From: an uncultured virus (IMG/VR IMGVR_UViG_2882707223_000001)
Lineage: Duplodnaviria > Heunggongvirae > Uroviricota > Caudoviricetes
Length of the DNA stretch: 29,511 nucleotides
Strand: one strand, 5' to 3'
Virus record (IMG/VR): IMGVR_UViG_2882707223_000001
The notes under the pieces: model-generated
Told to the model about the DNA's origin: nothing
What the model saw: the letters and a program-made list of their open reading frames with translations, nothing else
The model's database searches: none
Part shown: piece by piece, positions 1-29,511 of the stretch
Numbering within the stretch: position 1 is the stretch's first letter
Layout: each line of letters begins with the position of its first letter
Translations under genes and position numbers: made by a program

Positions 1-80
1 GCAAAAATCAGAATTGTGACACCTGCGAATTAAAGGATCGTTGCAATCTGAAAAAAGAGGGAGGCACAGATGAAAATTAA
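1..80 (+). CDS. 3' end of an upstream gene with a Cys-rich tail (possibly holin), partial
   Basis: Frame from nt 3 reads [25 protein letters not shown] and overlaps the endolysin start; function inferred only from position. Confidence 0.45.
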
Positions 81-13619: not shown

Positions 13620-13666
13620 ATGAAAAGCCCTCCTTTTGTGGTATAGTCGTGTTATCTACTATAACT

Positions 13667-13695
13667 ATTATATCAGAAAAGTTGACTTTTGACAA
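13667..13695 (-). promoter_or_regulatory. Recombinase promoter at the element boundary
   Basis: TTGTCA (13695-13690), 17 bp, TGnTATAAT (13672-13667). Confidence 0.7.
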
Positions 13696-15028
13696 TATCG
13701 GCTATCTGCTGAAGACCATGATGGATAAGATGATGTGGCAGGCGTATTACAGCTGCTTTGATGAATACCTTAAATCAGAGCTGCAGATGGATTACACGAT
13801 GGCAACCCGCTTCATCAAGGCGTGCGAGAAATACTCCGCCAAGGGAAACGGCATGGAGATCGAGGAAAAATATGAAGGATACTCCCAGGCGGTTCTGATC
13901 GAGATGCTGAACATGCCGCCGGAACTGGAAGAAAAGATAGCTCCGAGTATGACCGTGAAGCAGGTGAGGGAGATAAAGCGGCAGGCAAAACAGAAAGATA
14001 AGCCTCTGAAAGAGTCAGAAGAACCAGCTGATGGAGATATAGTCATAGACGGGGAATACAGAGAGATCGATATACCGGAATCAGAAAATATTGTTCCGGA
14101 GAAAGTTGCGACGTCGCAACCTGAGGATCCTGGCGAGATTCATGATGAAAGATGGTTCGTGGAACAGTATGTTAAATTTGAACCGAAGGAATCTGAAGAA
14201 TTGATGTGCATTTGTCTCCGGGAGAAAGACAATTCTGACAGGGCGGATGCTATTCAGAAGCACATATCCCCATATGGGTACAATTGCGGTGGAAGTTCGG
14301 AATTCGGTTTTGCTTTCCGTAGTTTCGCTGTCGGGGTGAGGCTTTATACAAAAAAAGAGAAGATCCATATGACATATAGGCGATTTGCAAAAGAGCTATG
14401 CCGGATAGCGGAAGAAACAGCGCTACCGCAATCGGCGAAATCGGCATATGGACTTGAAAAAACAGAATACCCGGAAGGGAGTTCTTTGGCGGGAGAAGGA
14501 TGCGGGCATAAGTATAATTGTTTTTTATGCGCACAGGCCTGCAGCATCAGAGGGGAAAACCGGCACTGTAGGTTTGCACCGCTTGGAGCTCCGTTTGATT
14601 GTGAAACGATGGAAATCCTTGAAAAAGGAGATCTGGAGAAAGTAGGGGATAGGTGCCAATTTGTTAATAATGATCTGGCATATCATACAGCAGGCAGCAA
14701 AGAGGCGGATCCATGCTGTAGGGTGTGTGAAGAGGTGTGTGAGTATCGATGCCAGAGATCGATTCAGGAGAATAAAACGGAGAAGCAGAGTGAATCAGAA
14801 GTTCTCCAAGAAAAAGAAATACTGGAGTCGGAAGCTGAGACAGAGAAGGATGAAGATCCCGAGCCGCTGAACGAGATGTGTGAGGTGCGTAAAATTTTGG
14901 AACAGGAGAAACAACATCTTAATGATTATCTTGAAATAGGGGGCATACCGGAAAAAACAATATTCCGCCAGAAGATTATCGTGGCAGCGCTTTCAGCGTT
15001 GGTACGTAATCTGGAAAAATCCGAATAA
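13696..15028 (+). pseudogene. 3' part of a DUF3102-like phage protein gene interrupted by element B
   Basis: Phage-like sequence starts at IGYLLK...YSCFDEYLKSELQMDYTMATRFI with no RBS or start; the first ~33 codons of the listed ORF are AT-rich element-B DNA. Confidence 0.7.
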
Positions 15029-15044
15029 AAGGGAGCAGAATGAA

Positions 15045-15299
15045 ATGAAAAATACACTTACAGACCTTAATAATTATCTTTTTGAGCAGTTAGAGAGGCT
15101 CAACGATGATGATCTGACGGGGGAACAGCTTGACCGGGAACTGCAAAAGACTGACAGCATCGTCAAGATATCCGAGAAGATTATCGAGAACGGAGAACTG
15201 GCTTTTAAGACCATGAAACATTTGGATGAATTCGGATACCATCCGGACAAGAGCATCAGATCAGTACCCCCGATGCTTACCACGGAAGGGAAGTGGTGA
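15045..15299 (+). CDS. Small phage protein upstream of the HNH gene
   Basis: MKNTLTDLNNYLFEQLERLND...; GGGAG RBS. Confidence 0.8.
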   Translation: MKNTLTDLNNYLFEQLERLNDDDLTGEQLDRELQKTDSIVKISEKIIENGELAFKTMKHLDEFGYHPDKSIRSVPPMLTTEGKW

Positions 15300-16132
15300 A
15301 AATGCCTGTATATAGATATTCGCAAGAGGTTCATGATTTCGTAAAGAAATGGAGTCTGAAGCTCCGGGACGAAGATTTGGCTGAAGCATGCAACAGTGAA
15401 CTGGGGACGCATTTCACAGCGCAGTCCATGAAAGCCTTCAGAGGAAATCATGGGTACAGGAATGGCAAGAAGCAATGGACAAAAGAGGAGTATTGGAAGT
15501 ATCAGAAAAAGTATCCCCAGGGGATGTACGAATTTGTCAGGGATAATTCCTGGGGCGTGAGTTCCAAAGAGATGGCAGAGATGGTGAATGAAAAGTTCGG
15601 CACCAGTTTCACGCAGACGATGATGAAGCAGTTCCGGCAAAGGCACGGCATTAAATCCGGCTGTACAGGCTGGTATCAGAAGGGACACCCACCGGGTACG
15701 AAGGGCAGAAAGCAGGAGGACTATATAAAAGATCCAGATGCACTCGAGAGGGCTAAGGCTACGCGCTTCAAAAAAGGTGACAGGCCAGCAAACGAACTGC
15801 CTGTCGGTGCGATCGTAGTCAATTCTGCCGGCTATAAGCTTCGGAAAAAGCAGATGGAGGGGAGTCTCTGGGAACGTTGGGAGTTTCTTCACAGGGCGGT
15901 TTGGGAAGAGCACAACGGGCCGATACCGGAAGGCGTGGTCGTTATTTTTAAAGATAATGACAAGCTGAATTGTGATATTGAAAATCTGATGCTGATCACG
16001 AAGGGTGAAAGCTGCGCATTGACGAGACTGGGTTACCGCTTTGAGGATCCGGATCTGACGCAGGCAGGATTGGGGATCGTTCGGCTGAAGCAGACAGTAG
16101 CAAAGAAAAAGAAGAAAGGGAAGAAGGCATGA
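15293..16132 (+). CDS. HNH endonuclease-like phage protein
   Basis: HRAVWEEHNGPIPEGVVVIFKDNDKLNCDIENLMLI with N-terminal repeats. Confidence 0.85.
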   Translation: MVKMPVYRYSQEVHDFVKKWSLKLRDEDLAEACNSELGTHFTAQSMKAFRGNHGYRNGKKQWTKEEYWKYQKKYPQGMYEFVRDNSWGVSSKEMAEMVNEKFGTSFTQTMMKQFRQRHGIKSGCTGWYQKGHPPGTKGRKQEDYIKDPDALERAKATRFKKGDRPANELPVGAIVVNSAGYKLRKKQMEGSLWERWEFLHRAVWEEHNGPIPEGVVVIFKDNDKLNCDIENLMLITKGESCALTRLGYRFEDPDLTQAGLGIVRLKQTVAKKKKKGKKA

Positions 16133-16214
16133 ACAGAATAGAAAAGGCGGTAGATGAAATAGCAGCCTATGTGTGATAAGGTTTGCGGACATAGAGCGGA
16201 AGAATGGAGGGGTA
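16129..16214 (+). pseudogene. Frameshifted remnant of a small phage gene
   Basis: ATGA-coupled start MNRIEKAVDEIAAYV* continues as CDKVCGHR in another frame at a GTGTG run. Confidence 0.4.
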
Positions 16215-16634
16215 GTGTTGGACAAAAAGGTTTTATCGGATTACATAGATATCTGTGAGCTGATCAGCGAGATGGAGGAAGAGATACAGAATCTGCGAAA
16301 AAAAAAAATAGCGCATGACAAAGTAACTGGAAGCAACCCGGAGTTCCCATATGAGCAGAGAAGCTTTCATGTATCGGGGATAATTGAAGCGGATCTGGAC
16401 AGTCAAAAGCTGAAAAGTGAACTGGAGCTGTTGAAAGAGAGAAAATACCAGGCGGAAAAAATGAAAGCGGAGATCGACAGGTGGATGAAGACCATACCGG
16501 CGAGGATGCAGCGGATTATTCGGATGAAATATTTTGAACGGAGAACGTGGGATGAAGTTGCGATTAAGCTGGGAAAAACGGCTACGGCGGATAATACGAG
16601 AAAAGAATTTGAAAGATTTTTGCAAAAAAAATAA
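16215..16634 (+). CDS. RinA/ArpU-like late transcriptional activator
   Basis: C-terminal sigma-r4-like HTH (QRIIRMKYFERRTWDEVAIKLG), last gene before the packaging module; start at 16215 or 16218 after GGAGGG. Confidence 0.75.
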   Translation: MLDKKVLSDYIDICELISEMEEEIQNLRKKKIAHDKVTGSNPEFPYEQRSFHVSGIIEADLDSQKLKSELELLKERKYQAEKMKAEIDRWMKTIPARMQRIIRMKYFERRTWDEVAIKLGKTATADNTRKEFERFLQKK

Positions 16635-16795
16635 AATTTTGTCCGTTTTGTCCACATTGTCCGGTTTTCCTATGTTAAAATGTAAAATGAAGTTGGTATG
16701 CAGAATACCTCCCCAATACATTTTTCAAAATACCTGGCTATTTCCCGGCTGGGTATTTTGTTTTTGCTGGTATGTCCAATAATATAACGTCTAAA

Positions 16796-16849
16796 ATACG
16801 CATTAAATACACATTTACTATTGACAGATGTGTAAAAAATGTGTATCAT
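16796..16849 (+). promoter_or_regulatory. hicAB promoter with inverted operator boxes
   Basis: TTGACA(16821)-17-TATCAT; ATACGCAT, ATACACAT, ATGTGTAA and ATGTGTAT placed symmetrically around the -35. Confidence 0.7.
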
Positions 16850-16869
16850 ATATACATAAGGAGGACATA

Positions 16870-17040
16870 ATGAAACAGAGAGACTTAATAAAGCGGTTGG
16901 AAAAAGGTGGATTTGTACTTAAGAGGCATGGAAGCGATCATGATATATATGTTAGAGGCGAGGATGAGGAGCAGGTACCGAGACACCGGGAAGTAAACGA
17001 AAGATTAGCAAAAGCCATATTGAGAAAGTGGGGATTGTAA
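16870..17040 (+). CDS. hicA: HicA toxin
   Basis: MKQRDLIKRLEKGGFVLKRHGSDHDIY...VPRH; AGGAGG RBS; start reassigned from 16828. Confidence 0.9.
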   Translation: MKQRDLIKRLEKGGFVLKRHGSDHDIYVRGEDEEQVPRHREVNERLAKAILRKWGL

Positions 17041-17095
17041 AATCCCCTCTTTCCCAATAAATGTATAGAGCGGAAAAGAAAGAAGAGGGAATAAA

Positions 17096-17518
17096 ATGAA
17101 AAACGTATATCCTGTAATATTTACACCATTAAGAGACGAAAAGGATACCGTACTGGTTGAGGTTCCGGATTTAGAAATACTGACGGAAGGTTATGGTATG
17201 GTAAATGCTGTTTATATGGCAAGGGATGCTATCGGATTAAAAGGAATAACGCGGGAGGATGAGGGAAAGGGCATACCAGCTCCCAGAGCATTAAATGACA
17301 TTGACGTATCAAAAGGAACATTTGCGGAAGATGGGAAAGGATATGTTTCGCTGGTGGATATAGACTTTGTGGAGTATCGGCGCAGGGTAGATAATAAAAC
17401 AGTGAGAAGAAATGTTACACTTCCGAACTGGCTGAATCAGGAAGCGGAAAAAGCGCACATCAATGTATCCAGAGTTTTACAGGAAGCACTGATGGCAAAA
17501 CTGAATGTGTCAAAGTAA
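17096..17518 (+). CDS. hicB: HicB antitoxin
   Basis: YPVIF...VEVPDL...TEG...MARDAI and C-terminal RHH VRRNVTLPNWLN...INVSRVLQEAL. Confidence 0.92.
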   Translation: MKNVYPVIFTPLRDEKDTVLVEVPDLEILTEGYGMVNAVYMARDAIGLKGITREDEGKGIPAPRALNDIDVSKGTFAEDGKGYVSLVDIDFVEYRRRVDNKTVRRNVTLPNWLNQEAEKAHINVSRVLQEALMAKLNVSK

Positions 17519-17568
17519 AAATTCCTGTTGCGACATCGCAATATAGTAAACCAAAGAGAATTATTTTT

Positions 17569-17597
17569 AAGAGTCGGCACAGCACCGGCTCTTTTTT
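17569..17597 (+). terminator. Intrinsic terminator after hicB
   Basis: AAGAGTCGG-cacagca-CCGGCTCTT-TTTT. Confidence 0.75.
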
Positions 17598-17625
17598 AAA
17601 AACAAACGAACAGGAGGCGGTGAGC

Positions 17626-17787
17626 ATGGCGAGACCAAGGAGCCCCGGCAGAGACAAAGCAAGGCAGCTCTGGCTGGATAGCGGGAAGAGCCGCCTGCTG
17701 AAGAGTATTGCAGAGGAACTGCAGGTATCAGAGGAACAGGTCAGAAAATGGAAAAATCAGGATAAATGGGATTTAGTAACGTTATGA
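17626..17787 (+). pseudogene. Truncated terminase small subunit (N-terminal HTH only, 53 aa)
   Basis: MARPRSPGRDKARQLW...LKSIAEELQVSEEQVRKWKNQDKW then stop at the junction; AGGAGG RBS. Confidence 0.85.
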
Positions 17788-18127
17788 AGCCTGCGGAGAG
17801 CTGGAGGCACAGACAAAACGAAACTCTAAGGTAAAGACTGGGCAGACAAAGGGTTCTTACGTATATGTTGTCGATGAGGCGGAGCTGAAAGGGTATGTCG
17901 GCTCAAACTATGAAAATGCCATCTGGGAGGAGTTCGGCACTGGTGAATATGCTTTGAATGGCGATGGGCGCAAAGGAGGCTGGCATTATCAGGACGAAAT
18001 GGGTGGGTGGCACTTCACGAGAGGAAAGAAGCCGCGGAGACCGCTTTTTAAAGCATTTACTTTACTCAAAGGCAGGATTACTCAGATGGCAGAGCAGATA
18101 ATAAGAGAAAGGCTGGACACAGAATGA
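17783..18127 (+). pseudogene. 5'-truncated HK97 gp10-family neck/tail-completion gene
   Basis: YEACGELEAQTKRNSKVKTGQTKGS...VGSNYENAIWEEFGTG...TRGKKPRRPL; in-frame stop at 17777 and no start codon; ATGA overlap with the next gene. Confidence 0.85.
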
Positions 18128-18519
18128 GCGCAGATGTACTGAACCTCATAAAGAATGCTATGGAAGCCCTGGGGCTGAAATATGGTTTTATGGAGTATAA
18201 GGTAAATGCCGGTGAGGCGCTGCCGGCTACTTACTTTGTCGGAGAATATCATGAACTGGAATCTGACGGTGAGGCCGGCGAAGAGGATACGGTATTTATA
18301 TTGACCGGTTTTTCACGGGAAAAATGGATCCGACTGGAGGAAACAAAGGAGATGATAAAAAAATATTTCCCCCGTAACAGTGGGAGGGTGATAGCAGCCG
18401 GATCCGATTCAACGGTCGCCCTCTTTTATGGGAACAGCCTCCCCCTGCCTGTGGAGGACGATGAACTGAAAAAAATGCAGATAAATCTAGTTATTAAAGA
18501 ATGGAAGGTGGAACAATGA
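18124..18519 (+). CDS. Tail terminator-like protein
   Basis: Size and position between gp10 and the major tail protein; YFVGEY motif. Confidence 0.7.
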   Translation: MSADVLNLIKNAMEALGLKYGFMEYKVNAGEALPATYFVGEYHELESDGEAGEEDTVFILTGFSREKWIRLEETKEMIKKYFPRNSGRVIAAGSDSTVALFYGNSLPLPVEDDELKKMQINLVIKEWKVEQ

Positions 18520-19259
18520 GAAAATCAGGTATTAATAATGACACGCCGAATGACTTCCTGTTGGGAGCAGGTGTTGTGTTTAAAAATTTTAAATACGTGT
18601 ATGAAAAGTATGAAGCTGAGGAGACGCTGGTGGCGGAGGATATTAAATTGAGCCAGATAGAGAACAATGTCTCTTTTATCGGCGTAAAAGACGGTTACAC
18701 ACCGGCGGTGGGGGATTTTGTCACAGGCGCGTGGGACGATTCTGAAAAGAATGTGCTCGGTGCTACCAATGGAGGGAATAAACTTTCTATTGTTCCGGAG
18801 ATCACACCCATTGAAGTGGATGGTGCGGTAGTAGAGATCAAAGGACTCAATCAGAAAACGGGGGAAACCGGGACACTGGAGGTGAACCTTGCACAGCATA
18901 CGGTTGAATCGCTGAAGCGTGCGATCGTAGGAAAAGAGGTCGAGAGTTTGATTCCGGGGTATAAGCAAATCCAGACGAAGTCGTTGATCGAATTGTCGGA
19001 TTATCTGGATAATATTGCTTATGTCGGCAGTATGACGGACGGGACGGAGATCATAGCAATCATGGAAAATGCGATCTGCTCGTCGGGGCTTGAATTAGAC
19101 TCGAAAAATAAGGAGACATCTGTTGTCAAGACCACGTTCAAGGCTACGGCTGATTTTAAGAGCGGCGTATATGATACACTGCCCATCTATATTTTCTATC
19201 CGGATAAGGAAAAACAGGAGACACAGACAAAGAAAATATATAAGATCGTGGAAGGGTAA
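18516..19259 (+). CDS. Major tail (tube) protein
   Basis: TPNDFLLGAG, LGATNGG, DYLDNIAYVG, MENAIC motifs and position; start reassigned from 18501. Confidence 0.8.
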   Translation: MRKSGINNDTPNDFLLGAGVVFKNFKYVYEKYEAEETLVAEDIKLSQIENNVSFIGVKDGYTPAVGDFVTGAWDDSEKNVLGATNGGNKLSIVPEITPIEVDGAVVEIKGLNQKTGETGTLEVNLAQHTVESLKRAIVGKEVESLIPGYKQIQTKSLIELSDYLDNIAYVGSMTDGTEIIAIMENAICSSGLELDSKNKETSVVKTTFKATADFKSGVYDTLPIYIFYPDKEKQETQTKKIYKIVEG

Positions 19260-19269
19260 GAGGTGGATC

Positions 19270-19704
19270 ATGAAGAAAATGGAAATAGGAGATACACTGC
19301 AGGATTCTGTAGCAGAAAAAGCGTGTGAACAAAAAACAGAGTCAAACATTGAACGCCAGTATACACTGCGCAGGCTGAAAGACTCCGACCTGTTCCCACT
19401 TCTTAAAATCTTGAAAAAAATAGGCATCAGGGATTGCAAAGAGGCCTTCATTCAAGTGGCTTCCGGGGAAAAAACTCTGAAACAAATAGGGATCATGGCT
19501 ACTTTCGATATAGCAGACATTCTGATCGGGAATCTGGCGAAGGTCGAAAATGAAACCTATGAAATGTGGTCAGACATATCAGGCATTCCGGCGGACGATA
19601 TAAGAGAGATGGAATTCGGCACACTGCCGTTGATGATCATGGACACTTTTTCAGAGGCAAGAAATACGAGTTTTTTCAGGGTGCTCTCCAGATTTCTCTC
19701 ATAG
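19270..19704 (+). CDS. Tail assembly chaperone (G-like)
   Basis: Between major tail and tape measure genes; GAGGTG RBS before ATG 19270. Confidence 0.75.
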   Translation: MKKMEIGDTLQDSVAEKACEQKTESNIERQYTLRRLKDSDLFPLLKILKKIGIRDCKEAFIQVASGEKTLKQIGIMATFDIADILIGNLAKVENETYEMWSDISGIPADDIREMEFGTLPLMIMDTFSEARNTSFFRVLSRFLS

Positions 19705-20033
19705 GAGAATTTGAATTCATGGACTTGTTGTATTCCAGATACGCAAGTCCTGTGGATTTCATGAATGTGTATATTGCACAGGGAAGATTTGGAGAATTTG
19801 TAGCTAAAATCTTTGAAATGGATGTGAGGCGTAAAAAAGAAGCAATTCGAAAAGAAGATGATAACATGCTGTGGCAGGCGTATGTCCATAGTGTGACGGA
19901 TAAGACGTTTCAGGATTGGAAAGATGGACTGATTCAAGAGAAGGAACCAGTATCATACCGTATGTCGGACAGACAGGTTAATGCTGTGAAACGGCAGACA
20001 AGAGAGATCCTGAGCAGAATATCTCCGGCGTAA
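19671..20033 (+). CDS. Tail assembly chaperone extension (T-like), reached by -1 frameshift
   Basis: Slippery heptamer T TTT TTC at 19671-19677; the -1 frame is open to 20033. Confidence 0.75.
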   Translation, partial: FFQGALQISLIGEFEFMDLLYSRYASPVDFMNVYIAQGRFGEFVAKIFEMDVRRKKEAIRKEDDNMLWQAYVHSVTDKTFQDWKDGLIQEKEPVSYRMSDRQVNAVKRQTREILSRISPA

Positions 20034-20054
20034 GAATCGGGAGGAACATATACG

Positions 20055-22739
20055 ATGGAACTTTTTAAACTGTTTGGAACAATCACAGTTAAAAATACGG
20101 AGGCGAACAGTGCGATCGATGAGACCACTGATAAGGCACAGTCTTTCTCACAAAAATTATCGGATAAATTTGAGGATGTCGGCACAAAAGCCACGAATCT
20201 GGGGACAAAGATGAGCCTGGGGTTAACAGCGCCTATCACACTGATCGGAACAAAAGCGATTCAGGCAACCGCAGATTTTGAGTCCGCAATGTCGGAAGTA
20301 GGGGCTATTTCAGGCGCTACGGGTGATGATCTTATAGCCCTGAGGAATAAAGCGGAAGAGATGGGGAAGACAACCAAGTTCTCAGCTTCTGAATCTGCGG
20401 AGGCTCTGAAATATATGGCGATGGCAGGATGGAAGACGGAAGATATGTTGGATGGCCTGGAAGGCATTATGAACCTTGCGGCGGCTTCAGGGGAAAATCT
20501 GGGGACCACATCCGATATCGTGACGGATGCGCTTACTGCTTTTGGGATGAAAGCTTCTGACAGCGGGCATTTTGCAGATGTATTGGCGCAGGCATCCTCA
20601 TCGGCGAATACTAATGTGGGCGAAATGGGAGAGGCATTTAAGTATGTAGCACCGGTGGCGGGAGCTTTGGGATATAGCATTGAGGATGTATCGCTGGCTA
20701 TTGGATTGATGTCTAACGGAAGTGTACATGCATCTCAGGCAGGTACAGCTTTACGAGGATCATTAAGCAGACTGGTAAAGCCTACCGAAGATATGATAAG
20801 TACAATGGTAAATCTGGGGTTGGCCACAGAAGAAACTACCAATGTTGTTGACAGTGGAAAGCTCCAGAAGGCCCAGACGAAAGTCGAAAATAAAACTATC
20901 GATATGCAGAAAGCGCAGATCAAATATAATGATGCTGTCGCCAAATACGGCGTAAATTCTTCACAGGCTCAGACGGCGGCATTAAACCTTGAAAAAGCGC
21001 AGAATAATCTGGAGGCCGCTGTTTACGATCTGAATGTAGTACAGGAAGGAGAAACGGAGACTTTAGGCATCACAAATAACCTTCTCGTGGACAGTGAAGG
21101 AAATACGAAGTCGCTTCGAGAAGTAATATTGGCGTTACGCACAGCATTTTCCGGATTGACAGAGGAAGAGCAGGCTCAGGCTGCTACTACATTATTTGGC
21201 CAGGAAGCAATGGCAGGAATGCTCAATATCATTAATGCGGGTGAAGATGATTTTAATAAATTTGCAGATGCTATCGATAGTTCAGAAGGCAGAGCAAAGG
21301 AAATGTCTGACATTATGAAAGACAATCTGTCTGGGCAGTTAACAGAGCTTGGATCAAAGTTAGAAGGTCTCGCTATACAGTTTGTAACGTTGATCATGCC
21401 TTACCTGAAACAGGGTGTGGAATGGCTTTCCAAAGTGTGCGACTGGATATCGGGACTGGATGACGGGACAAAAAAGATGATTATAACAGCGGCCGCACTT
21501 CTGGCCGCCGCAGGTCCAGTGCTTATCTTTGTAGGAAAAATGGCCACCGGAATCGGTTCAGTCATCAGCATCGGGAGCAAGCTGATCGGGGGCATTACTA
21601 CTCTTATCCCGATCATCAGTTCCATCACTGCGCCTGTTGCCCTTGTAATAGCTGCGATAGCGGCACTGGTGGCCATAGGGGTTACCCTGTATAAAAACTG
21701 GGATACGATAAAAGAAAAAGCGGGAGAACTGAAGGAGAAAGTAGTCAGTAAAGTAACAGAGATGAAAGAAAAAGCGATAGAAAAATTTACAAATCTGAAA
21801 GAGGAGGCATCGGAGAAAGTAAAAAATTTGAAGGAAGATGCGGTTGCCGGATTTACTGAATTAAAAGAAAGAGCTGAAAGTCGGATAGAGGGTTTGAGGG
21901 CAAGGGCAGCAGAAAAATTTGGGAAAATGAAAGAAGATGCATCGGAAAAGGTGAGAAATCTGAAAGAAAACGCTATATCTGGATTTACTGAGTTGAAAGA
22001 AAAAGCGGAAACCCGGATAGAAGGACTGAGGGCGAGTTCAGCGGCAAAATTCACGCAGATGAAGGAGGATGCATCGGAAAAGGTGAAAAATCTGAAAGAA
22101 AACGCCGTGTCTAAGTTCCAGGAGTTAAAAGATAGAGCGTCTGAAAAAATCACTTCCCTGAAAAATAAAGGAATTGCTGATTTTGAAGCCTTGAGATCCG
22201 GTGCAGTCCTAAAGTTTGAAAATTTGAGATCCGGTGTGACACAGAAACTGGATGCAGTAAAGAATTTTACATCTAATACTGTTCGGAAGCTGAAAGAATT
22301 CTTTAACTTTGACTGGAAGCTGCCGAGAATCAAGCTTCCGCATTTTAGTATCAGCGGAAAGTTTTCACTTAACCCGCCGTCAATTCCGAAATTCAGTGTG
22401 GACTGGTATAGAAGAGCGATGGATAATCCTCTGTTGATGGAAAAGCCGACAGCGTTTGGAATCAATGCGAGAGGGCAGATTATGGCGGGCGGCGAAGCCG
22501 GGAGTGAAGTGGTGAGCGGGACGCAGACGCTGATGAAGATGATCTCTGCGGCGGTCGCAGAAAACAATGAACGGCTCTATACGATCCTGAATCAATTATA
22601 TGATCTGTTAAGCGAATGCCTTCCGGCGCTGGAAAAGAGGCAGTTGGTCCTGGACTCTGGAGTGCTGGTAGGCGAACTTGCCCGGCCGATGAATGAGGAG
22701 CTCGGCAGAATTACATATATGAGGGGGAGGCGGAATTAG
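20055..22739 (+). CDS. Tape measure protein (TP901-type core)
   Basis: ADFESAMSEVGAISGATG, TKFSASESAEALKYMAMAGW, hydrophobic block, 11-aa periodic repeats, AGGEAGSE. Confidence 0.93.
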   Translation: MELFKLFGTITVKNTEANSAIDETTDKAQSFSQKLSDKFEDVGTKATNLGTKMSLGLTAPITLIGTKAIQATADFESAMSEVGAISGATGDDLIALRNKAEEMGKTTKFSASESAEALKYMAMAGWKTEDMLDGLEGIMNLAAASGENLGTTSDIVTDALTAFGMKASDSGHFADVLAQASSSANTNVGEMGEAFKYVAPVAGALGYSIEDVSLAIGLMSNGSVHASQAGTALRGSLSRLVKPTEDMISTMVNLGLATEETTNVVDSGKLQKAQTKVENKTIDMQKAQIKYNDAVAKYGVNSSQAQTAALNLEKAQNNLEAAVYDLNVVQEGETETLGITNNLLVDSEGNTKSLREVILALRTAFSGLTEEEQAQAATTLFGQEAMAGMLNIINAGEDDFNKFADAIDSSEGRAKEMSDIMKDNLSGQLTELGSKLEGLAIQFVTLIMPYLKQGVEWLSKVCDWISGLDDGTKKMIITAAALLAAAGPVLIFVGKMATGIGSVISIGSKLIGGITTLIPIISSITAPVALVIAAIAALVAIGVTLYKNWDTIKEKAGELKEKVVSKVTEMKEKAIEKFTNLKEEASEKVKNLKEDAVAGFTELKERAESRIEGLRARAAEKFGKMKEDASEKVRNLKENAISGFTELKEKAETRIEGLRASSAAKFTQMKEDASEKVKNLKENAVSKFQELKDRASEKITSLKNKGIADFEALRSGAVLKFENLRSGVTQKLDAVKNFTSNTVRKLKEFFNFDWKLPRIKLPHFSISGKFSLNPPSIPKFSVDWYRRAMDNPLLMEKPTAFGINARGQIMAGGEAGSEVVSGTQTLMKMISAAVAENNERLYTILNQLYDLLSECLPALEKRQLVLDSGVLVGELARPMNEELGRITYMRGRRN

Positions 22740-22741
22740 AA

Positions 22742-23365
22742 ATGTATGGCGCAGTATTCGGGGATAAGCATACAAAAGAGGACTATGGCGCTGTCATGAA
22801 TTATGTCAGGATAACACCGCCGGCTGTAAAAGAGAATTATGTGGATATTGCCGGCGGAAATTCCTCCATCGATCTGACAGAGGCGGTTGGCGGGGTGGTA
22901 TTTGAAGATGGAGAGATCGATTTTAAATTTACCCTGTTTGATGCGGGGTGCAAAGAAAAGATGAAAAATGATCTGCATGGACGGCGCATGAAAATCATTT
23001 TGGAAAGGGAGCCGGAATTTTACTATGAAGGCCGCATATCCGTCATCAGCGAGAAACAGACGGGAAATATTTATGAATTATGCATGAAAGCAAAGGTAAA
23101 ACCTTATAAGCTGGATCGAGTAATGGTTCATGAAGAGGAGATAAAAGGTGAGAAAGAGATTATCCTGTTCAGCGACAGGATGCCGGTCATGCCGCTCATA
23201 ACAGTTGAGGGAAATATTGCTGTCAGTTATGAGGGCATCCGTTTTGCGCTGGAAGCCGGAGTATATGAAATACCTGAGATTACCTTTCAGGACGGACCAA
23301 ACAGGCTGAAGGTATCTGGAAGGGGGAAAATCCGACTGGAATACAGAAAAGGACAACTGATATGA
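22742..23365 (+). CDS. Distal tail protein (Dit)
   Basis: Follows the tape measure gene; PPAVKENYVDIAGGNSSIDLTE, LHGRR motifs. Confidence 0.8.
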   Translation: MYGAVFGDKHTKEDYGAVMNYVRITPPAVKENYVDIAGGNSSIDLTEAVGGVVFEDGEIDFKFTLFDAGCKEKMKNDLHGRRMKIILEREPEFYYEGRISVISEKQTGNIYELCMKAKVKPYKLDRVMVHEEEIKGEKEIILFSDRMPVMPLITVEGNIAVSYEGIRFALEAGVYEIPEITFQDGPNRLKVSGRGKIRLEYRKGQLI

Positions 23366-25005
23366 TAATCATAAAAAACGGTGAGAGACAGATATATCAT
23401 CCACGCAACCCTAATCTGGCGTTGATCAATCCGAAATTGACACTGGAGGATAATGGGGCCGGAAGCCTTACTTTTAAAATATATGACAGCAATCTGAATT
23501 ACCACACGATCAGAAAGCTCTATCCACTCATATCAGTAATCAGAGATGGCAGGACATTATTTAAAGGAAGGGTAATTTCTGATAAGAAAGACTTTTACAA
23601 TGGAAAATCTGTGGAAGTGGAAGGAAAATTGACTTTTTTAAATGATTCCTATATGGAACCTTTTTCTTTCTCGGGAAGTCCGTCGGAATTGTTCAGGATG
23701 ATTATCGAAAATCATAATGCGCAGGTGATGGACTGGCAGCAATTCAAAATAGGAGTCGTGACAGTCGTCGATAACAACGATTATATTGTCAGGAGCAGTG
23801 AGAATGTTATAAATTCCTGGAATGCCTTGAAGGATAAATGTTTTAAGTCATCTCTGGGAGGGCATATCAGAATAAGGTATGAAGAGGATGGAGATTATAT
23901 TGACTGGCTTTCAGATTATGATGTTGTGTCAAAGCAGAGCATTGAGTTTGCAAAAAATATGATAGATATGTCTTCGGAGCTGGATGCGACAGAGACTTAT
24001 ACGGCGATCAGGCCAGTTGGAGCGGAGGTAGATGGTGTTAAGGTTAATATTTCTTCTGTGAACGGTGGGAAGACCTATATTATCAATGAGGAAAAAGCGA
24101 CTGAATATGGGATTATATTTGCACCGGAGAATGAATCTACCTGGGAAGACGTGACACTGCCACAGAACCTTCTAAAAAAGGCGAAAGAAAAGCTTTTTCA
24201 TTCATTTGTCACATTGAATGAGACATATGAGATCAAAGCGGTTGATCTGCACCTGACGGATGCAAGCATTGAAGCCCTGGATATCTGTGAATATGTTCCG
24301 GTGGTCAGCCGTCCGCATGGGATAAACGGGAATTACCTGTTGAGCAGAGCAGATATCTATATTGCAGAACCGCAAAATTCGGTATTCTACCTGGGCTCCA
24401 GCAGACGGGTATTAAGCGATATGAATATGGCTGGAGGCGTACCGGCTGCAGTTCCAAAGAATATTAGCTCTTTTGAAAATGATGCAGGATACATATCGGA
24501 AGAAAAGACAGAAAAAATTCTGGCAGACTATTCCAAAACGATAGAGGTTGAACAGATCGTAAACGAAGCGGTATCGCAGATACCGAGTGGAGCAGACGGC
24601 AAGGATGGCCTGTCCGCTTATGAAATAGCGGTGAATAATGGCTATACCGGAAATGAAAGCGAATGGCTGGAATCCCTGAAAGGGATGAAGGGAGAAGATG
24701 GAGCACCTGGGTGGGATGGTAAGGATGGAATAGATGGTGTTGATGGAGAAACGCCTTTCATAGGTGATAATGGGAACTGGTTTATCGGTGGTGAGGATAC
24801 AGGAAAGCCTTCCCGCGGAGAAAAAGGTGAGAAGGGGGATAAAGGTGATGCCGGTTCTGCTGGTGGATCATCAGGTGGGTTGGGAATGTATGCATTTGAA
24901 ATTCGGGAAGATGGGCACTTGTGGGTGATGTCAGAGTCGGAGATGCAGTCAGAGAATTTTGGCATTAATGATGATGGACATCTTATTTATACAGTGGAGG
25001 GATAA
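23362..25005 (+). CDS. Tal/tail spike protein with collagen-like C-terminus
   Basis: AGSLTF...LFKGRV...EGKLTFLNDS; GLSAYEIAV...EWLESLKG; Gly-X-Y repeats; IGDNGNWFIGGEDTG. Confidence 0.8.
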   Translation: MIIIKNGERQIYHPRNPNLALINPKLTLEDNGAGSLTFKIYDSNLNYHTIRKLYPLISVIRDGRTLFKGRVISDKKDFYNGKSVEVEGKLTFLNDSYMEPFSFSGSPSELFRMIIENHNAQVMDWQQFKIGVVTVVDNNDYIVRSSENVINSWNALKDKCFKSSLGGHIRIRYEEDGDYIDWLSDYDVVSKQSIEFAKNMIDMSSELDATETYTAIRPVGAEVDGVKVNISSVNGGKTYIINEEKATEYGIIFAPENESTWEDVTLPQNLLKKAKEKLFHSFVTLNETYEIKAVDLHLTDASIEALDICEYVPVVSRPHGINGNYLLSRADIYIAEPQNSVFYLGSSRRVLSDMNMAGGVPAAVPKNISSFENDAGYISEEKTEKILADYSKTIEVEQIVNEAVSQIPSGADGKDGLSAYEIAVNNGYTGNESEWLESLKGMKGEDGAPGWDGKDGIDGVDGETPFIGDNGNWFIGGEDTGKPSRGEKGEKGDKGDAGSAGGSSGGLGMYAFEIREDGHLWVMSESEMQSENFGINDDGHLIYTVEG

Positions 25006-25008
25006 TTT

Positions 25009-25662
25009 ATGGCCCAGGCAGATTTGGGAAAGGTGCGACTGACAGATGCGGAACTGTCAGAAAAAATAATTCAAACAAACGGAGGCGTAAGGTTTGGAAA
25101 GGATGCAGATGGAAAACCGGGATATGTGGTAACGGATGCGGAAACAGGTGCTGATACAGTGATCCCTTTTAGCAATGGATCCTCTGGGGGGATTCCAGTA
25201 CAAGGATCTATTTGCTTTGCTGGGTCAAAAATACATTCTGTTTCAGGGGGTTCAGATTATTTGGCGTTTGTTTTATTCGATGATCCAATAGAGATTTCGC
25301 AAATTAAAGAAATTAAAACAATAACACAAATTTCTAATTGGTATAGAATAAGCAGTGGATATACTACTTCGCTGTCAAGGATGATGTATATTTTTTTGTA
25401 TATAGAAAATAATGATGGTCAATTTCAGCAGTTTCGATATTCTTTTCCAGTTATAAATGTATCTGGGACGGGAAGCGGGGTTGCCAATGAGAAAGAAATG
25501 ATTATACCACCATCGTTAATATCACAATATAAGAATTTGATAGGAATAGGTTGTGATTTTTATCAATATGGAGGTGGATCTTCTACTGGATATTGGTTCA
25601 CATCTCAAATTGGAAATGCAGCAGATCCTCATGGATCGGAAATGAAATATTTTATAAGCTGA
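25009..25662 (+). CDS. Putative receptor-binding/tail-tip protein
   Basis: N-terminal RFGKDADGKPGY...GADTVIPF then an AT-richer beta-rich C-terminus. Confidence 0.55.
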   Translation: MAQADLGKVRLTDAELSEKIIQTNGGVRFGKDADGKPGYVVTDAETGADTVIPFSNGSSGGIPVQGSICFAGSKIHSVSGGSDYLAFVLFDDPIEISQIKEIKTITQISNWYRISSGYTTSLSRMMYIFLYIENNDGQFQQFRYSFPVINVSGTGSGVANEKEMIIPPSLISQYKNLIGIGCDFYQYGGGSSTGYWFTSQIGNAADPHGSEMKYFIS

Positions 25663-25694
25663 TAACTTATATTAAGACAGAACGGAGAATAAGT

Positions 25695-26495
25695 ATGGCA
25701 CAGATAAAATTATTGCTGGAAAAACAGCTTTTGACAATTCAGAATCAGGATATCATTGCTTCAGGTGACAGCAACTTTGATTCTTGTAAATTTATATTTG
25801 ATAAAACATGGGAAGGATTCACGAAAACAGGTGTATTTTATCAGGACAAAGCCAACGTACAGTATGCAGTGCTGGGAAATAATGATACCTGTATGATTCC
25901 TGCGGCGGCCATGGCGAGAGCCGGACGGATGTATATCGGAGTATTTGGCATGAAAGATACTGCGGTAGTTACATCAACGCTGTGCATCATTGATATAAAA
26001 GAAGGTGCTATTTCCGGCGAAAATGTGTCCATGGAGCCGACAGACGATATCTTTTTAGCGATTATTGCACAGTATCAGAGAATCGCAGATCTGATGAGCA
26101 GATACGAGGAGACAGCGGAGCAGTTTAATATCACGATGGCGGAGCAAAACAGCATTCTGGAGACGTTAAATGCTTTTGATGTGACAGAGATCAGTCAGAG
26201 ACTCGATCTGATTGAGGATCGGATGATAAATTATACCAACCTGGCTAAAGAGATACAGAATCGTGAGATTATTATTCGGGACGTCCCGATTAAGTTTGTA
26301 AATAAAGTCTGCAGGATAGCGAGTGATGTTATTACAGAGAATTCACTTTGTGATATCTATTTCGATGAATATTCTTTTGAGATTGCATCGAAAGCGCTTA
26401 TCATACCGGTATCGCATGTTGGGTACATAGAATTGACGAGTTCTATTGATATTCTGGATGAATTGAATGCAAATATACTTGTCAGGAGGAATTGA
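25695..26495 (+). CDS. BppU-like baseplate/fibre adaptor protein
   Basis: CKFIFDKTWEGFTKTGVF...CMIP...IGVFG, EPTDDIFLAII followed by coiled coil; start reassigned from 25593. Confidence 0.6.
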   Translation: MAQIKLLLEKQLLTIQNQDIIASGDSNFDSCKFIFDKTWEGFTKTGVFYQDKANVQYAVLGNNDTCMIPAAAMARAGRMYIGVFGMKDTAVVTSTLCIIDIKEGAISGENVSMEPTDDIFLAIIAQYQRIADLMSRYEETAEQFNITMAEQNSILETLNAFDVTEISQRLDLIEDRMINYTNLAKEIQNREIIIRDVPIKFVNKVCRIASDVITENSLCDIYFDEYSFEIASKALIIPVSHVGYIELTSSIDILDELNANILVRRN

Positions 26496-26497
26496 TT

Positions 26498-27691
26498 ATG
26501 CTGGGAAAAACGAATATAACAACATTATCAGAAGGCGCCATTGTAACTGAAATTGAAGATTATAACTGGATACAGGTACAATCAGGTGTTTTTGCTGATT
26601 TTGTAGCGGCAATTTTTAAAAATGGATATCTGGTGGCCATTACTGCGGATGGTACTGTTGTTTATACAACGGATGGAGAAGCATGGCAGACACATATGCT
26701 GGAATATGAAAATTGCAGGCTGAATGATATTGACTGGGATGGGAATGATTTTGTATTGGCGGGTGGGTATATTAATAATGGAAAAAAAACCGGGTTAATA
26801 CTTAGAACAGCAAACTTTGAGGAGTATGTAGAGTTAAATACAGAAAATAGCAGCGATTCAGAGACCAACTATGATACTGAATATCATGCAATATATCCGT
26901 CTAATGGAAAGTACCTTGTTATAGCGGAAAGAATAGAGAAAACTTACAGGTATGTATATGCATATGCCGGAGATTTAGTAAATGCATGGGACAGAATGAA
27001 TAGATTACACGCTAAAAATGAAACAAATGGAGTGGCTTATTATGTAGAAAGTGTAACAGTCGCAAAAAATTCCAGCGAAATGTTGCTGCATATCAATTAT
27101 TATGCACAGACAAATACAACTACTACCTGGTATAATGAAATACAAAAAATAGACAATAAAGGAACATTTACTCATTTGCATAATATAAAATCGGGTAATA
27201 TACCTGTTATGAATGTCTATGAGTGTAAGGATGCCCTGTTTTACAGTTCTATGATGTCAACGGACGATTATAAAATAGTAAAAGTTTTGCCTTCCAATGA
27301 AACGAACATATTAAGTACCGGGCAGAATTTTTTCTTTAAAGATGGGGTATATTTTAACGAATGTCAGCTCTTCATTAATAGTCATGAAATGCTGATTGTC
27401 AAAAAGAGGGAGAGTATTTCAGACAAAACGTTAGATGATTTGATTGAGATCGCCCCGGAACTTACCATGAACTGTATCACAAAAGCATTCGGGCAGTTGT
27501 ACATATTCGGTAACCAGGGCGTAATACTCAAATCCAGCGTTGAAACAAATAATGAAGAGGCGATAATTGTTCAGACAATATCTGCAAAAAAGGCGCTTCA
27601 GGATGCAAAGAAATATACAGATGAGCAATATGCGGCTTTAGAGGCAAGGATTGTGGCTCTTGAAAAAGGAGGTTCCGGGAATAATGGATAA
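26498..27691 (+). CDS. Beta-propeller-like tail-associated protein
   Basis: YTTDGEAW and GNQGVILKS blade-like motifs; C-terminal AKKYTDEQYAALEARIVALE coiled coil; AGGAGG RBS. Confidence 0.55.
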   Translation: MLGKTNITTLSEGAIVTEIEDYNWIQVQSGVFADFVAAIFKNGYLVAITADGTVVYTTDGEAWQTHMLEYENCRLNDIDWDGNDFVLAGGYINNGKKTGLILRTANFEEYVELNTENSSDSETNYDTEYHAIYPSNGKYLVIAERIEKTYRYVYAYAGDLVNAWDRMNRLHAKNETNGVAYYVESVTVAKNSSEMLLHINYYAQTNTTTTWYNEIQKIDNKGTFTHLHNIKSGNIPVMNVYECKDALFYSSMMSTDDYKIVKVLPSNETNILSTGQNFFFKDGVYFNECQLFINSHEMLIVKKRESISDKTLDDLIEIAPELTMNCITKAFGQLYIFGNQGVILKSSVETNNEEAIIVQTISAKKALQDAKKYTDEQYAALEARIVALEKGGSGNNG

Positions 27692-27775
27692 TGAGAGGAC
27701 GAGAGCGATAAGGGATCCGCCTGACTGAACATTATATAAGCATGCAAAAAATATCTAAAGAAAGGAAGAGGTAGA

Positions 27776-28261
27776 ATGAAAACCGAAAACTTTGTAAAAG
27801 GGACTGTGACGGCAGTCTCTTCTTTTTTTACGTCAATTCTGGGCGTATTGGCGGTTCCGATAGGGCTGATGGTGCTCAGCAACCTGATTGATTATGGAAC
27901 GGGTCTGATGGCGTGCAAGTTCAGGAACGAAAATATCAGTTCCTATAAATCGATCAGAGGAATCATGAAGAAAGTCTGCATGTGGCTGCTGGTGGCGGTC
28001 GGGGCGATCATCGATGTACTGTTAAAATATGCATCCGAAACGATAGGCATAGCGCTTCCGTTTACATTCCTGGTGGCGTGTATCGTTGCCATATGGATCA
28101 TCTGTAATGAGATTATCAGCATCCTGGAGAATATAAAAGATATGGAAGTGGAATTGCCGGTATTTTTAGAAAAGCTTACCCAGAATATAAAATCACAGGT
28201 AGAGGAGTTGGGAGAGCAGAGACAGGGAAATATTGACACCAAGAACAGAGAGGGTGAATAA
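27776..28261 (+). CDS. Phage holin (holin_4_1-like)
   Basis: LIDYGTGL...ISSYKSIRGIMKK...NEIISILEN. Confidence 0.9.
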   Translation: MKTENFVKGTVTAVSSFFTSILGVLAVPIGLMVLSNLIDYGTGLMACKFRNENISSYKSIRGIMKKVCMWLLVAVGAIIDVLLKYASETIGIALPFTFLVACIVAIWIICNEIISILENIKDMEVELPVFLEKLTQNIKSQVEELGEQRQGNIDTKNREGE

Positions 28262-28306
28262 TTGCCCTCTTTTTATACCTGAGCAGAGGAGGCAGAAAGA
28301 AAAATT

Positions 28307-29020
28307 ATGATTATAAATATACATGCCGGGCATAATCCGGCGGGGAAGGTAGCATGCGGCGCTGTAGGGCTGATCAATGAGTCAACAGAAAACAGGCGGG
28401 TAAAAGATGAGGTGATATCCCAGCTCCGGGAACTCGGTCATATAGTCTATGACTGCACCGTGGATAACGGGAGCGGCCAGAGTGATGTGTTGAATAAAAT
28501 AGTGGCAAAATGTAACGCCCATGCGGTGGATCTGGATGTGAGCATTCATTTCAACAGTGGCGCTGCTGACAAAAAAGGAAACGGGAAGACAACAGGCGTG
28601 GAGGTTTTGGTATACTCGGCGAACAGTGAATCCAAGGGCACAGCGGAAAAAGTGTGTACTGCCGTGGCAGAGCTGGGATTTAAAAATCGCGGTGTAAAAT
28701 ACAGGCCGAATCTTCGTGTGCTGAAAAGCACAAAAGCACCGGCAATGCTGGTAGAATGCTGCTTTGTGGATGACAGGGATGATGTGGAAAAATATGATTA
28801 TTTTTCGATGGCTACTGCTATCGTGAGGGGGATCACCGGCCAGGCCGTTCAGAATGTTCCGGAAACCGCGCCGGCAGGATCCTGTGAAGAGACTGTCGTG
28901 GGACCTTCCGGAGCGCTGTACAGGGTACAGGTAGGCGCATACAGCAGGAGGGAAAATGCAGATGCAATGGCGGAAAAGCTGCGCAGAGATGGGTTTGATG
29001 CCTTCATCGTTATGGCATAA
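28307..29020 (+). CDS. N-acetylmuramoyl-L-alanine amidase (Amidase_3 + SPOR) endolysin
   Basis: HAGH, SIHFN, GVEV, AMLVECCFVD; YRVQVGAYS SPOR domain. Confidence 0.92.
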   Translation: MIINIHAGHNPAGKVACGAVGLINESTENRRVKDEVISQLRELGHIVYDCTVDNGSGQSDVLNKIVAKCNAHAVDLDVSIHFNSGAADKKGNGKTTGVEVLVYSANSESKGTAEKVCTAVAELGFKNRGVKYRPNLRVLKSTKAPAMLVECCFVDDRDDVEKYDYFSMATAIVRGITGQAVQNVPETAPAGSCEETVVGPSGALYRVQVGAYSRRENADAMAEKLRRDGFDAFIVMA

Positions 29021-29058
29021 GACTAAGTAATGTCTTAGCAATTATTCCATTTATCATT

Positions 29059-29511
29059 CTTATCGGTACGCCGATCATTGCTGCGGAGTCTGGCTATGTG
29101 GAAGCCCTGGGGTGGAATCAGTATGGCGGCTGGCGTATCGGCATCCGGAGTTTTGACAAAAAACGTTACTACTATTATGCGCATCTGCGGCAGAACTATC
29201 CCTATGCGGAAAACCTGAAAGAGGGGGATATCGTTTCGGCCGGGGATGTGATCGGCTACATGGGACATACGGGCTACAGCGCAAAGGAAAATGTGAATAA
29301 TATTGAGACGGTACATCTGCATTTCGGACTGGAACTTGTATTTGACGAATCCCAGAAGGAGAGCAATAACGAGATATGGATCAACTGTTATGAGCTCACA
29401 AAGTTTTTGGCAAAAAATCGCAGCGAGGTGTACAAAGTTGAGGGGACGAAAGAGTGGAAAAGGGTGACGGACATTAAACTGCCGGAGGTAGAAAACGCTA
29501 ACCAAAGTTAA
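29059..29511 (+). pseudogene. 3' half of a LytH-like M23 metallopeptidase gene, truncated at the prophage edge
   Basis: LIGTPIIAAESGYVEALGWNQYGGWRIGIR...YYYAHL...GDVIGYMGHTG...HLHFG; the HxxxD motif and a start/RBS are missing upstream. Confidence 0.8.

Follow-up and report, generated by a model that had tools for sequence, protein, structure and literature searches.

The right end of the 29,511-nucleotide stretch of viral DNA analyzed here (IMG/VR record IMGVR_UViG_2882707223_000001, referred to below as the window) raises the question of why the lysis genes of a prophage run directly into one half of a bacterial peptidase gene, and whether the host ever recovers that gene. The window corresponds to positions 91916-121426 of the 123-kb contig C4 in a 4.02-Mb draft genome (65 contigs, 5.2% estimated contamination), designated G000. 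The M23 peptidase gene is interrupted by an 89.6-kb composite insert bounded by a 15-bp repeat. We lean towards the view that this insert is a member of the sporulation gene-intervening elements and would be excised to rebuild the gene in sporulation.

The 3′ half of the gene occupies positions 29062-29511 (+ strand), as judged from its translation, a match to Pfam family PF01551 and its identity to relatives. The M23 frame opens 41 bases past the TAA codon (29018-29020) of a phage amidase gene, reads IGTPIIAAESGYVEALGWNQYGGWRIGIR...YYYAHL...GHTGYS...VHLHF, and terminates with TAA at 29509-29511, where the window itself ends. An earlier note on this DNA had the frame begin at LIGTP (29059); IGTP, from 29062, does belong to the gene, but the preceding L is derived from the element. 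The Peptidase_M23 profile (PF01551) matched the 3′ half alone with an E-value of 6.7e-15 over profile positions 12-88 of 96, and since the match begins at position 12, the start of the domain is missing from this half. A search for homologues among longer proteins gave 7,999 candidates passing an E-value of 0.001, the best 120 of which are M23 proteins 321-427 amino acids (aa) in length that match 85-93% of the fragment at identities of up to 98%. Full-length relatives read across the break as ...RPHLGHDMMGQIGTPIIAAESG... (i.e. RPHLGHDMMGQ/IGTPIIAAESG, with the slash at the break), and intact relatives share 96-98% identity with the 3′ half over their residues 219-365. The cut thus lies four residues past the D of HxxxD, in agreement with the earlier note, which had placed it just after this motif and had considered the 3′ half undamaged, with HLH present; HLH is encoded at 29314-29322 and the frame is open to its TAA codon.

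The 5′ half is intact at C4:30684-31334, on the same strand and contig, 89.6 kb upstream and outside the window. When three full-length relatives were used as tblastn queries, residues 2-223 matched C4:30672-31334 and residues 219-365 matched C4:120977-121417, in a shared strand. The 5′ half is 78% identical to the N-terminal part of protein P0012 and ends ...HLGHDMMGQIGTPI, followed by 22 foreign codons and a stop. It carries HLGHD, and both zinc motifs (HxxxD and HxH) of a Pfam-recognized M23 domain are therefore accounted for by the two pieces. The earlier note had proposed to look for a 5′ half next to an integrase, and an undamaged one, ending just past HxxxD, was indeed found to adjoin a recombinase gene (LSR1, see below); joined in silico, the two halves are in frame and equal the intact gene of relatives. 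The note had also named an intact copy reconstituted at the other end as an observation that would speak against its proposal, and no second close copy of the peptidase gene was found in the genome.

Both junctions of the insert carry the 15-bp direct repeat ATCGGTACGCCGATC, at 29062-29076 (attR core, defined from junction sequences and empty-site alignments) and at C4:31320-31334, outside the window (attL core, defined from junction sequences). No further exact copy exists in the 4.02-Mb genome. In alignments with C4, three intact loci of relatives break off after position 31334 and continue from 120977, overlapping by 15 bases; the 89,642 bases in between are thus cleanly inserted, and the empty site of the relatives holds one copy of the repeat. 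The flanks are common to G000 and the empty-site relatives, with a DUF6033 gene upstream and a cation-efflux gene downstream. Given the single repeat in the empty site, precise excision would restore the frame: removal of the insert together with one repeat (89,657 bp) yields one intact open frame, composed of pieces of 636 and 447 bases, both multiples of three. The locus is a coding sequence that is interrupted and restorable by precise excision.

The element-side arm of attR (P arm; 64 bp, 28998-29061) extends over the final 23 bases of the amidase gene and is conserved among elements of the same recombinase type. The genome G410, from the genus of the window's host, and a contig of run X4 match G000 only from C4:120913 (window 28998, L001:1599) onward. 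Because they diverge 64 bases before the core, elements of this type share a short conserved arm, while the adjoining lysis genes differ. In four other genomes with elements at the same site (G359, G334, G416 and G406) the element arms form inverted repeats centered on the AC of GGT-AC, which are less perfect in G000. This dyad symmetry of the attP arms, seen in six element types, points to the AC of GGT-ACG as the probable crossover dinucleotide. The attB core is itself a near-perfect natural palindrome (GATCGG-TACG-CCGATC).

The recombinase gene next to attL, LSR1, encodes a 518-aa protein (C4:31359-32915, just inside attL, on the strand opposite to the peptidase gene) with the Pfam domains Resolvase, Recombinase and Zn_ribbon_recom; the motif YPRKSV is present in the BLASTP alignment of this protein with LSR2, a second recombinase of the insert. 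These domains, together with the dyad-symmetric att sites around a 2-bp crossover, identify LSR1 as a large serine recombinase (LSR), and the element carries its own site-specific recombinase gene next to an att site. LSR2 (12099-13619, - strand; Resolvase 5.1e-34, Recombinase 4.7e-07) is nested in the insert, is 30% identical to LSR1 (BLASTP) and probably does not act on these att sites.

The extent of the mobile unit is indicated by a second genome of the same genus, G234. There, an LSR gene 90% identical to LSR1 and a holin gene 91% identical (by blastn) to that of the window flank the same peptidase gene in an inverted element, with the holin gene next to the 5′ half; the element-side junction arms are homologous to those of G000. 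Since an LSR1-like recombinase, the holin and the arms are paired again in G234, the two outer ends belong together, and the att-bounded unit is the whole composite. Accordingly, the earlier note's "element C" has to be replaced as the splitting unit by the entire 89.6 kb between the 15-bp repeats, with the recombinase at the far left end, outside the window. The interior of the insert is rearranged and invaded by other elements.

The identity of the peptidase is less sharply defined than its structure. Its 200-residue N-terminal region gave no match to a Pfam family, and NCBIfam yielded no LytH-specific match, only weak sub-threshold ones to ShyC, Pgp3 and one other M23 family. Sequence searches of the PDB returned generic M23 domains (best match 3nyy_A, 1e-20), and the protein atlas clusters bear only the label "M23 family metallopeptidase". 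The earlier note had taken the gene for LytH-like from its motifs; the sole lead to LytH in the searches is P0074, one homologue named LytH by NCBI (orthology unconfirmed). LytH (YunA) of B. subtilis is an M23 peptidase that is expressed only in sporulation and works on the peptidoglycan of the spore cortex (PMC9662197). SpoIIQ is an unlikely identity for the gene, which has no forespore-type promoter and is not beside spoIIID (on contig C5). Our guess would be a LytH-like role in the remodelling of cortex or engulfment peptidoglycan. The gene terminus, ...ENANQS-TAA, corresponds to window 29503-29511; the closest relative, P0003, is three residues longer (QSYGS), and the C-terminal tail is variable among relatives.

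Several observations connect the gene with sporulation. G000 encodes SpoIVA, two Spo0A_C matches, sigK- and sigE-like genes, SpoIIID, SpoIIM, BofA and YabP, and by this gene content its host appears to be an endospore former. The sigK gene of G000 appears uninterrupted. A promoter-like motif, GAATGTC-N14-CATATATT, is located 34 nt before the peptidase start codon. A strict form of this motif (xxAT(A/G)xx-N13-15-CATA(C/T)AxT, scanned on both strands) has 165 matches genome-wide and four on contig C4; two of the four lie inside the insert, and only the one at the peptidase gene cleanly precedes a gene start. In the genus, GAATGTC-N14-CATATA(C/T)T is kept in all ten alleles, while the spacer to the start codon differs in both length and sequence.

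When the genome was scanned for open reading frames (ORFs) with the strict motif within 170 nt upstream plus a ribosome-binding-like site, 50 were obtained besides the peptidase gene. BofA, SpoIIM and YabP account for three of them, most of the others being unrelated genes or intragenic fragments; bofA, spoIIM and yabP are sigma-E genes in B. subtilis. The spoIVA gene is preceded by a near-match, TCATACA-N14-CATAAACT. Of 80 orthologues of the peptidase gene, 30 have the strict motif upstream, compared with 8 of 854 control ORFs taken from these loci; for the -10 part alone, the figures are 36 of 80 and 45 of 857. The 80 loci are related, so that this contrast is overstated. Sigma-E and sigma-K promoters have a common -10 and differ in the -35 (ATA and AC, respectively), according to Saujet 2013.

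The phyletic pattern of the gene was determined in 401 Lachnospiraceae genomes (one per genus, with G000 included in the total), with P0012 as the query and carriers separated by eye in the table of E-values. An orthologue is present in 107 of the 401 genomes (best E-value ≤3.7e-65 in carriers, next best 4.9e-29). SpoIVA was detected in 104 of the 107 carriers, compared with 262 of 401 genomes overall; the three carriers lacking it have genome completeness values of 72%, 100% and 83%. Taken with the promoter, this suggests that the interrupted gene is a mother-cell-type, sporulation-linked peptidase gene.

The insertion in G000 is one of many in this gene. A search of the 80 best-scoring loci returned intact genes only; ranking by score hides split genes, and the search was therefore made family-wide. 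In the family sample, 7 of the 107 orthologues are split beside an LSR gene. At the site IG^TP, three genomes (G000, G234 and G359) contain LSR1-type prophages with recombinases 58-90% identical to LSR1, G313 contains a 47-kb integrative and conjugative element (ICE), and G334 a 2.86-kb element composed of a gene for a 496-aa LSR and two small ORFs. In G213 (L089:7705-12707), HLG^HD is occupied by a 10.9-kb element that lacks phage genes and carries three LSR genes in tandem, and in G389, GHTGYS is occupied by a 28-kb ICE with a 14-base junction repeat. Apparent splits near residues 172-190 in G218 and G175 were left out of the count, since the pieces stop at contig ends.

Within the genus of the window's host, the gene was found in 10 of 13 genomes (the three without it are 83-86% complete), and it is split in eight of these ten species and intact in two. 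Five species (G000, G410, G403, G408 and G401) carry LSR1-type elements in the orientation of G000, with recombinases 81-97.5% identical to LSR1, and G234 carries the inverted LSR1-type element. G406 contains a 3.99-kb element (601-aa LSR and an 87-aa ORF), and G411 an element of the three-LSR type at HLG^HD, again without phage genes (L163:4463-8819). Recombinases of differing element types are only 20-30% identical, and the insertions fall into three sites (HLG^HD, IG^TP and GHTGYS). The two mini-elements (2.86 and 3.99 kb) consist of little besides an LSR gene, have no transfer or phage genes, and lie between intact halves.

The opposite orientation of the G234 element has a simple counterpart in its sequence. 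Read in phage orientation, the central dinucleotide of its attP is the complement of that of G000 (AC versus GT), while the arms are homologous (L095 and L096 compared with C4:31320-31360 and window 29036-29076). Integration opposite to that in G000 would follow from this complementary dinucleotide. In the G334 mini-element, an inverted repeat of approximately 80 bases (L088:2090-2175, 3230-3395) flanks a 1.1-kb segment just upstream of the recombinase gene, which contains a 58-aa four-cysteine ORF and a 99-aa ORF; the segment may be one that inverts, or the repeat may be the remnant of a nested element.

These distributions permit a broader proposal, which we put forward tentatively and hold with less confidence than the reading of the single insert. 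The peptidase gene may serve family-wide, in gut Lachnospiraceae, as a landing pad for developmental intervening elements, on which at least four LSR lineages (20-30% identical), carried by prophages, ICEs, three-recombinase elements and domesticated mini-elements of 3-4 kb, have converged at three sites, most of them on the same AC. The split state would then be the norm in the window's genus, spore-wall maturation would routinely depend on programmed excision, and the orientation of the insert would be set by a flip of the attP dinucleotide.

The split halves appear to be under purifying selection, a pattern that should not be seen in a gene that is never rebuilt. All seven of the split 3′ halves translated (G411 was left out) are open. 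In pairwise Nei-Gojobori comparisons of nine alleles (36 pairs), the ratio of nonsynonymous to synonymous substitution rates (dN/dS) of the 3′ half lay between 0.00 and 0.10 in every pair and that of the 5′ half between 0.04 and 0.13 in the 32 pairs with computable dS, and pairs of split alleles gave values no higher than the pair of intact ones; as dS mostly exceeds 1 and the phage is mobile, dN/dS alone does not date the insertions.

Two pairs of genomes bear on this point. G000 and G410 can be aligned without interruption, with 97.4% identity over the stretch comprising the 5′ half, attL and LSR1, and 97.1% over that from the 64-bp arm across the 3′ half; with alignment continuous across both junctions, the common ancestor most simply already had the insert. 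Between their gene halves there are 16 synonymous and 4 nonsynonymous changes (6 and 0, respectively, within the 3′ half); the counts of 16 and 4 correspond to a binomial P of 3.9e-7 against a 3:1 neutral expectation, this being an approximated site ratio. The dN/dS of LSR1 between the two genomes is 0.08. G334 and G416 have the LSR type (66% identical), site and orientation in common, and the halves are open in both. Their uncorrected proportions of nonsynonymous and synonymous differences (pN and pS) are 0.22 and 0.73 for the 5′ half, compared with 0.22 and 0.78 for the recombinase gene, and this equal divergence fits a long co-divergence of the recombinase and the gene halves.

Relatives of one of these recombinases were also found at another sporulation gene. 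In G334 (contig C5) and in G417, paralogues of the G334 LSR (46-49% identical) adjoin a truncated copy of cotJC, which follows cotJB and encodes a coat protein of the Mn-catalase family. In G334, the missing start of cotJC, MWSYEKKLQYPVNIKTSNPKLAQVIISQFGG, follows cotJB, approximately 5.7 kb away, and the site consists of a 10-base repeat, TTTGGTGGTC, flanked by perfect inverted repeats. In G417 (L167) a truncated cotJC lies beside an LSR gene, and in G413 (L168) a paralogue is located approximately 1.8 kb downstream of cotJB, suggesting that it also targets cotJC. Two preprints name this gene as one that such elements hit recurrently (bioRxiv 10.1101/2021.11.22.469490; 10.1101/2022.02.25.481979). 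The target differs from the peptidase gene, and the bearing of these cases is that this LSR family lives in sporulation genes. The cotJC insert of G334, approximately 5.7 kb long, also contains HicAB and a T5orf172 gene (L169:1736-3873, L173). In G416, the cotJC frame diverges after ...DIGTEELA, and another insertion may be present there at a second site.

The promoter, the phyletic pattern, the recurrent split alleles under purifying selection, the mini-elements and the cotJC paralogues together make excision in sporulation the best explanation for this locus. In the mechanism that we propose, the composite would have integrated by an LSR-mediated crossover at the AC of GGT-ACG (within the IGTP motif), four codons past HxxxD. 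In the terminally differentiating mother cell, LSR1 along with a recombination directionality factor (RDF) would recombine attL with attR, so that 89,657 bp would leave as a circle and the gene would be rebuilt and transcribed from its sigma-E/K-type promoter. The forespore chromosome would retain the element, and both element and gene would consequently be inherited.

A number of observations weigh against this reading. In runs X1 and X2, the contigs that span attR show it in the integrated state, and no contig from the G000 strain had the empty site or a circle junction; rare forms are lost from contigs, however, and a skip over an element longer than 20 kb would have escaped notice. The element yielded no recognizable RDF, and the heavily rearranged G000 element may have lost it. 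A sigma-E-type motif was found before none of the ten LSR genes examined, and a sigma-K-like match, which is weak, before two of them (at -309 for LSR1 of G000 and at -223 for the LSR gene of G334). The strict motif is absent upstream of 50 of the 80 orthologues of the peptidase gene, and in the genus the -35 part of the motif overlaps a hairpin of the upstream gene. The genomes in the phyletic comparison are related, so that the association with SpoIVA is overstated. The argument from selection requires the insertions to be older than the G000/G410 and G334/G416 splits, which is parsimonious but not proven. In some pairs, the dS of the LSR gene is lower than that of host genes; this and the inversion in G234 indicate that the phage moves between species, in which case many insertions may be recent and their intact halves uninformative. 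Finally, LSR elements often enter conserved genes without any developmental role, and several of those described here resemble ordinary active prophages and ICEs.

In addition, the strict-motif scan gave no usable match for an RDF promoter in the element. None of the public runs listed as containing the sequence is recorded as RNA. Loose contig ends at L001:1687-1693 were examined and rejected, as they come from orthologues of other organisms, with 5-7 differences in approximately 60 bases.

The most serious competitor, though in our view a rather unlikely one, is ordinary integration: LSR phages and ICEs would favor a conserved palindromic attB, and a redundant, dispensable peptidase would stay inactive while an element is resident, to return only upon its loss or induction. 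Many LSR phages are known to interrupt their targets without regulated excision. The palindromic attB core is an ideal LSR target, four other M23 matches over the Pfam cut-off are present in the genome, the elements include apparently complete prophages and ICEs, and the movement of the phage between species (the inverted copy in G234, the low dS of LSR genes) is what this explanation would lead one to expect. What it does not account for well is the purifying selection on a promoterless 3′ half in G000 and G410, which share both junctions (0 and 6 changes; 4 and 16 overall), nor the fact that eight of the ten species of the genus are split while all seven translated 3′ halves are open. The presence, within intact halves, of mini-elements without transfer or phage genes, the equal divergence of recombinase and gene halves between G334 and G416, and the conservation of the promoter in split alleles likewise argue against it.

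Selection on the halves and on LSR1 requires only occasional rebuilding of the gene, not rebuilding in the mother cell. The element could, in principle, be a reversible switch unrelated to sporulation ("active lysogeny"), excised upon some other cue to toggle a vegetative cell-wall hydrolase, for which the Listeria comK phage provides a precedent; that most LSR genes were without a sporulation-type promoter in our scan agrees with this. Such a switch is nevertheless improbable, as the promoter of the gene is of the sigma-E/K and not the sigma-A type, the orthologues are nearly confined to SpoIVA-positive genomes, and paralogous recombinases target cotJC. Moreover, excision in dividing cells would risk the loss of mini-elements unable to reinfect. 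An assembly artefact, i.e. a chimeric contig joining the gene halves to phage DNA, might be suspected in a 65-contig draft with 5.2% estimated contamination, but its probability is negligible, since independent contigs of two public runs span attR with 0-2 differences, five further species of the genus have the same junctions, and the exact 15-bp repeat is present at both junctions.

Mother-cell genes rebuilt by excision are known mostly from Bacilli and from a few Clostridia, and include sigK, spsM, kamA, spoVFB, spoVR, gerE, cotJC, yabG and others. In its anatomy, the insert of G000 matches the class formed by skin, SPbeta, vfbin and gin. The skin elements in sigK of Bacillus subtilis and Clostridioides difficile (skinCd) are prophage-derived, encode a large serine recombinase and interrupt a mother-cell gene (PMC5025042, PMC4191935, bioRxiv 10.1101/2022.02.25.481979); they resemble the present insert in having short junction repeats and in being possibly degenerate and variable in size between species. 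Unlike skin, the insert described here has an M23 peptidase rather than a sigma factor gene as its target and a gut Lachnospiraceae host, and at least four unrelated LSR lineages use three sites within the one gene.

Like the insert described here, SPbeta in spsM of B. subtilis (SprA/SprB) is a large prophage with an LSR gene at one end; it splits a mother-cell gene for envelope maturation, which the peptidase gene probably is as well, and in both the attB is symmetric and lies inside the coding region (PMC5595907, PMC5499854, PMC4191935). SPbeta, a single active phage, has a known RDF under sporulation control, whereas the element of the window has been rearranged and combines a complete contractile-tail module with a headless tail module, a second LSR gene and an insertion sequence (IS), and no RDF was recognized in it. 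The gin element in gerE of Bacillus cereus ATCC 10987 is a non-phage element with three serine recombinase genes (PMC5595907). The elements with three tandem LSR genes and no phage genes in the peptidase genes of G213 and G411 are similar; unlike gin, this type occurs at HLG^HD, in genomes other than that of the window. Our literature search, which did not cover the fullest target list (Abe 2013) or supplements, yielded no M23 or lytH gene among the reported targets of intervening elements, and no description of the phenomenon in Lachnospiraceae.

If excision in sporulation is the correct reading, a peptidoglycan peptidase would be added to the list of excision-rebuilt targets, the phenomenon would extend to the abundant Lachnospiraceae of the gut, in which passage from host to host is governed by sporulation, and the split state would be the majority state across a genus and not the oddity of a strain. 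The interest of the locus lies in this prevalence within the genus, in the diversity of recombinases converging on one dinucleotide and in the mini-elements. The insertions provide a natural panel of divergent LSRs sharing one crossover dinucleotide in a conserved attB, useful for the study of integrase specificity, and the pair G000/G234 is a natural case of integration orientation differing through the central dinucleotide. Split genes of this kind should not be labelled pseudogenes in annotation.

The remainder of the insert reflects its composite nature. To the right of LSR1 lies a region of genes for lysogeny and replication (Fic, HicB, S24 repressor, helicase, primase and RusA), followed by a plasmid-like stretch (Rep proteins and a short tyrosine-integrase ORF) and by methylases. 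A complete contractile-tail late region then follows (terminases, portal, capsid, sheath, tube and baseplate), mostly upstream of the window, which closes with a holin and an endolysin at window 70-1482. By domain matches, the end of this module (70-1768, + strand) encodes the endolysin (CHAP, CW_7 and LysM) and a SPOR protein.

Further into the window, a transposase gene (3060-4094, + strand; Pfam HTH_38 8.8e-07 and rve 1.8e-08), which we read as IS30-like, is inserted within the composite. The ORFs between it and LSR2 are without assignment, and LSR2 is followed by HicAB and a small terminase-like ORF. The tail module that comes next, at 20055-25005 (+ strand), is headless and consists of genes for a tape-measure protein (PhageMin_Tail, 8.7e-52), a 207-aa ORF without a family match and a prophage tail endopeptidase (Prophage_tail, 1.4e-20); no large terminase, portal or capsid gene was found in the region 13619-29020. 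The lysis module at the right end of the element comprises a holin gene (27776-28261, + strand; Phage_holin_4_1, 9.2e-26) and a gene for a phage N-acetylmuramoyl-L-alanine amidase with a SPOR domain (28307-29020, + strand; Amidase_3 7.7e-24, SPOR 1.2e-08).

Just upstream of the window, the tail-fibre region of the contractile-tail module ends in a diversity-generating retroelement (a bAvd-like protein and a reverse transcriptase; C4:89576-91406, L005:8576-10406). In G000 as a whole, tblastn with three recombinase queries detected approximately 14 genes of the large serine recombinase type, distributed over 11 contigs.

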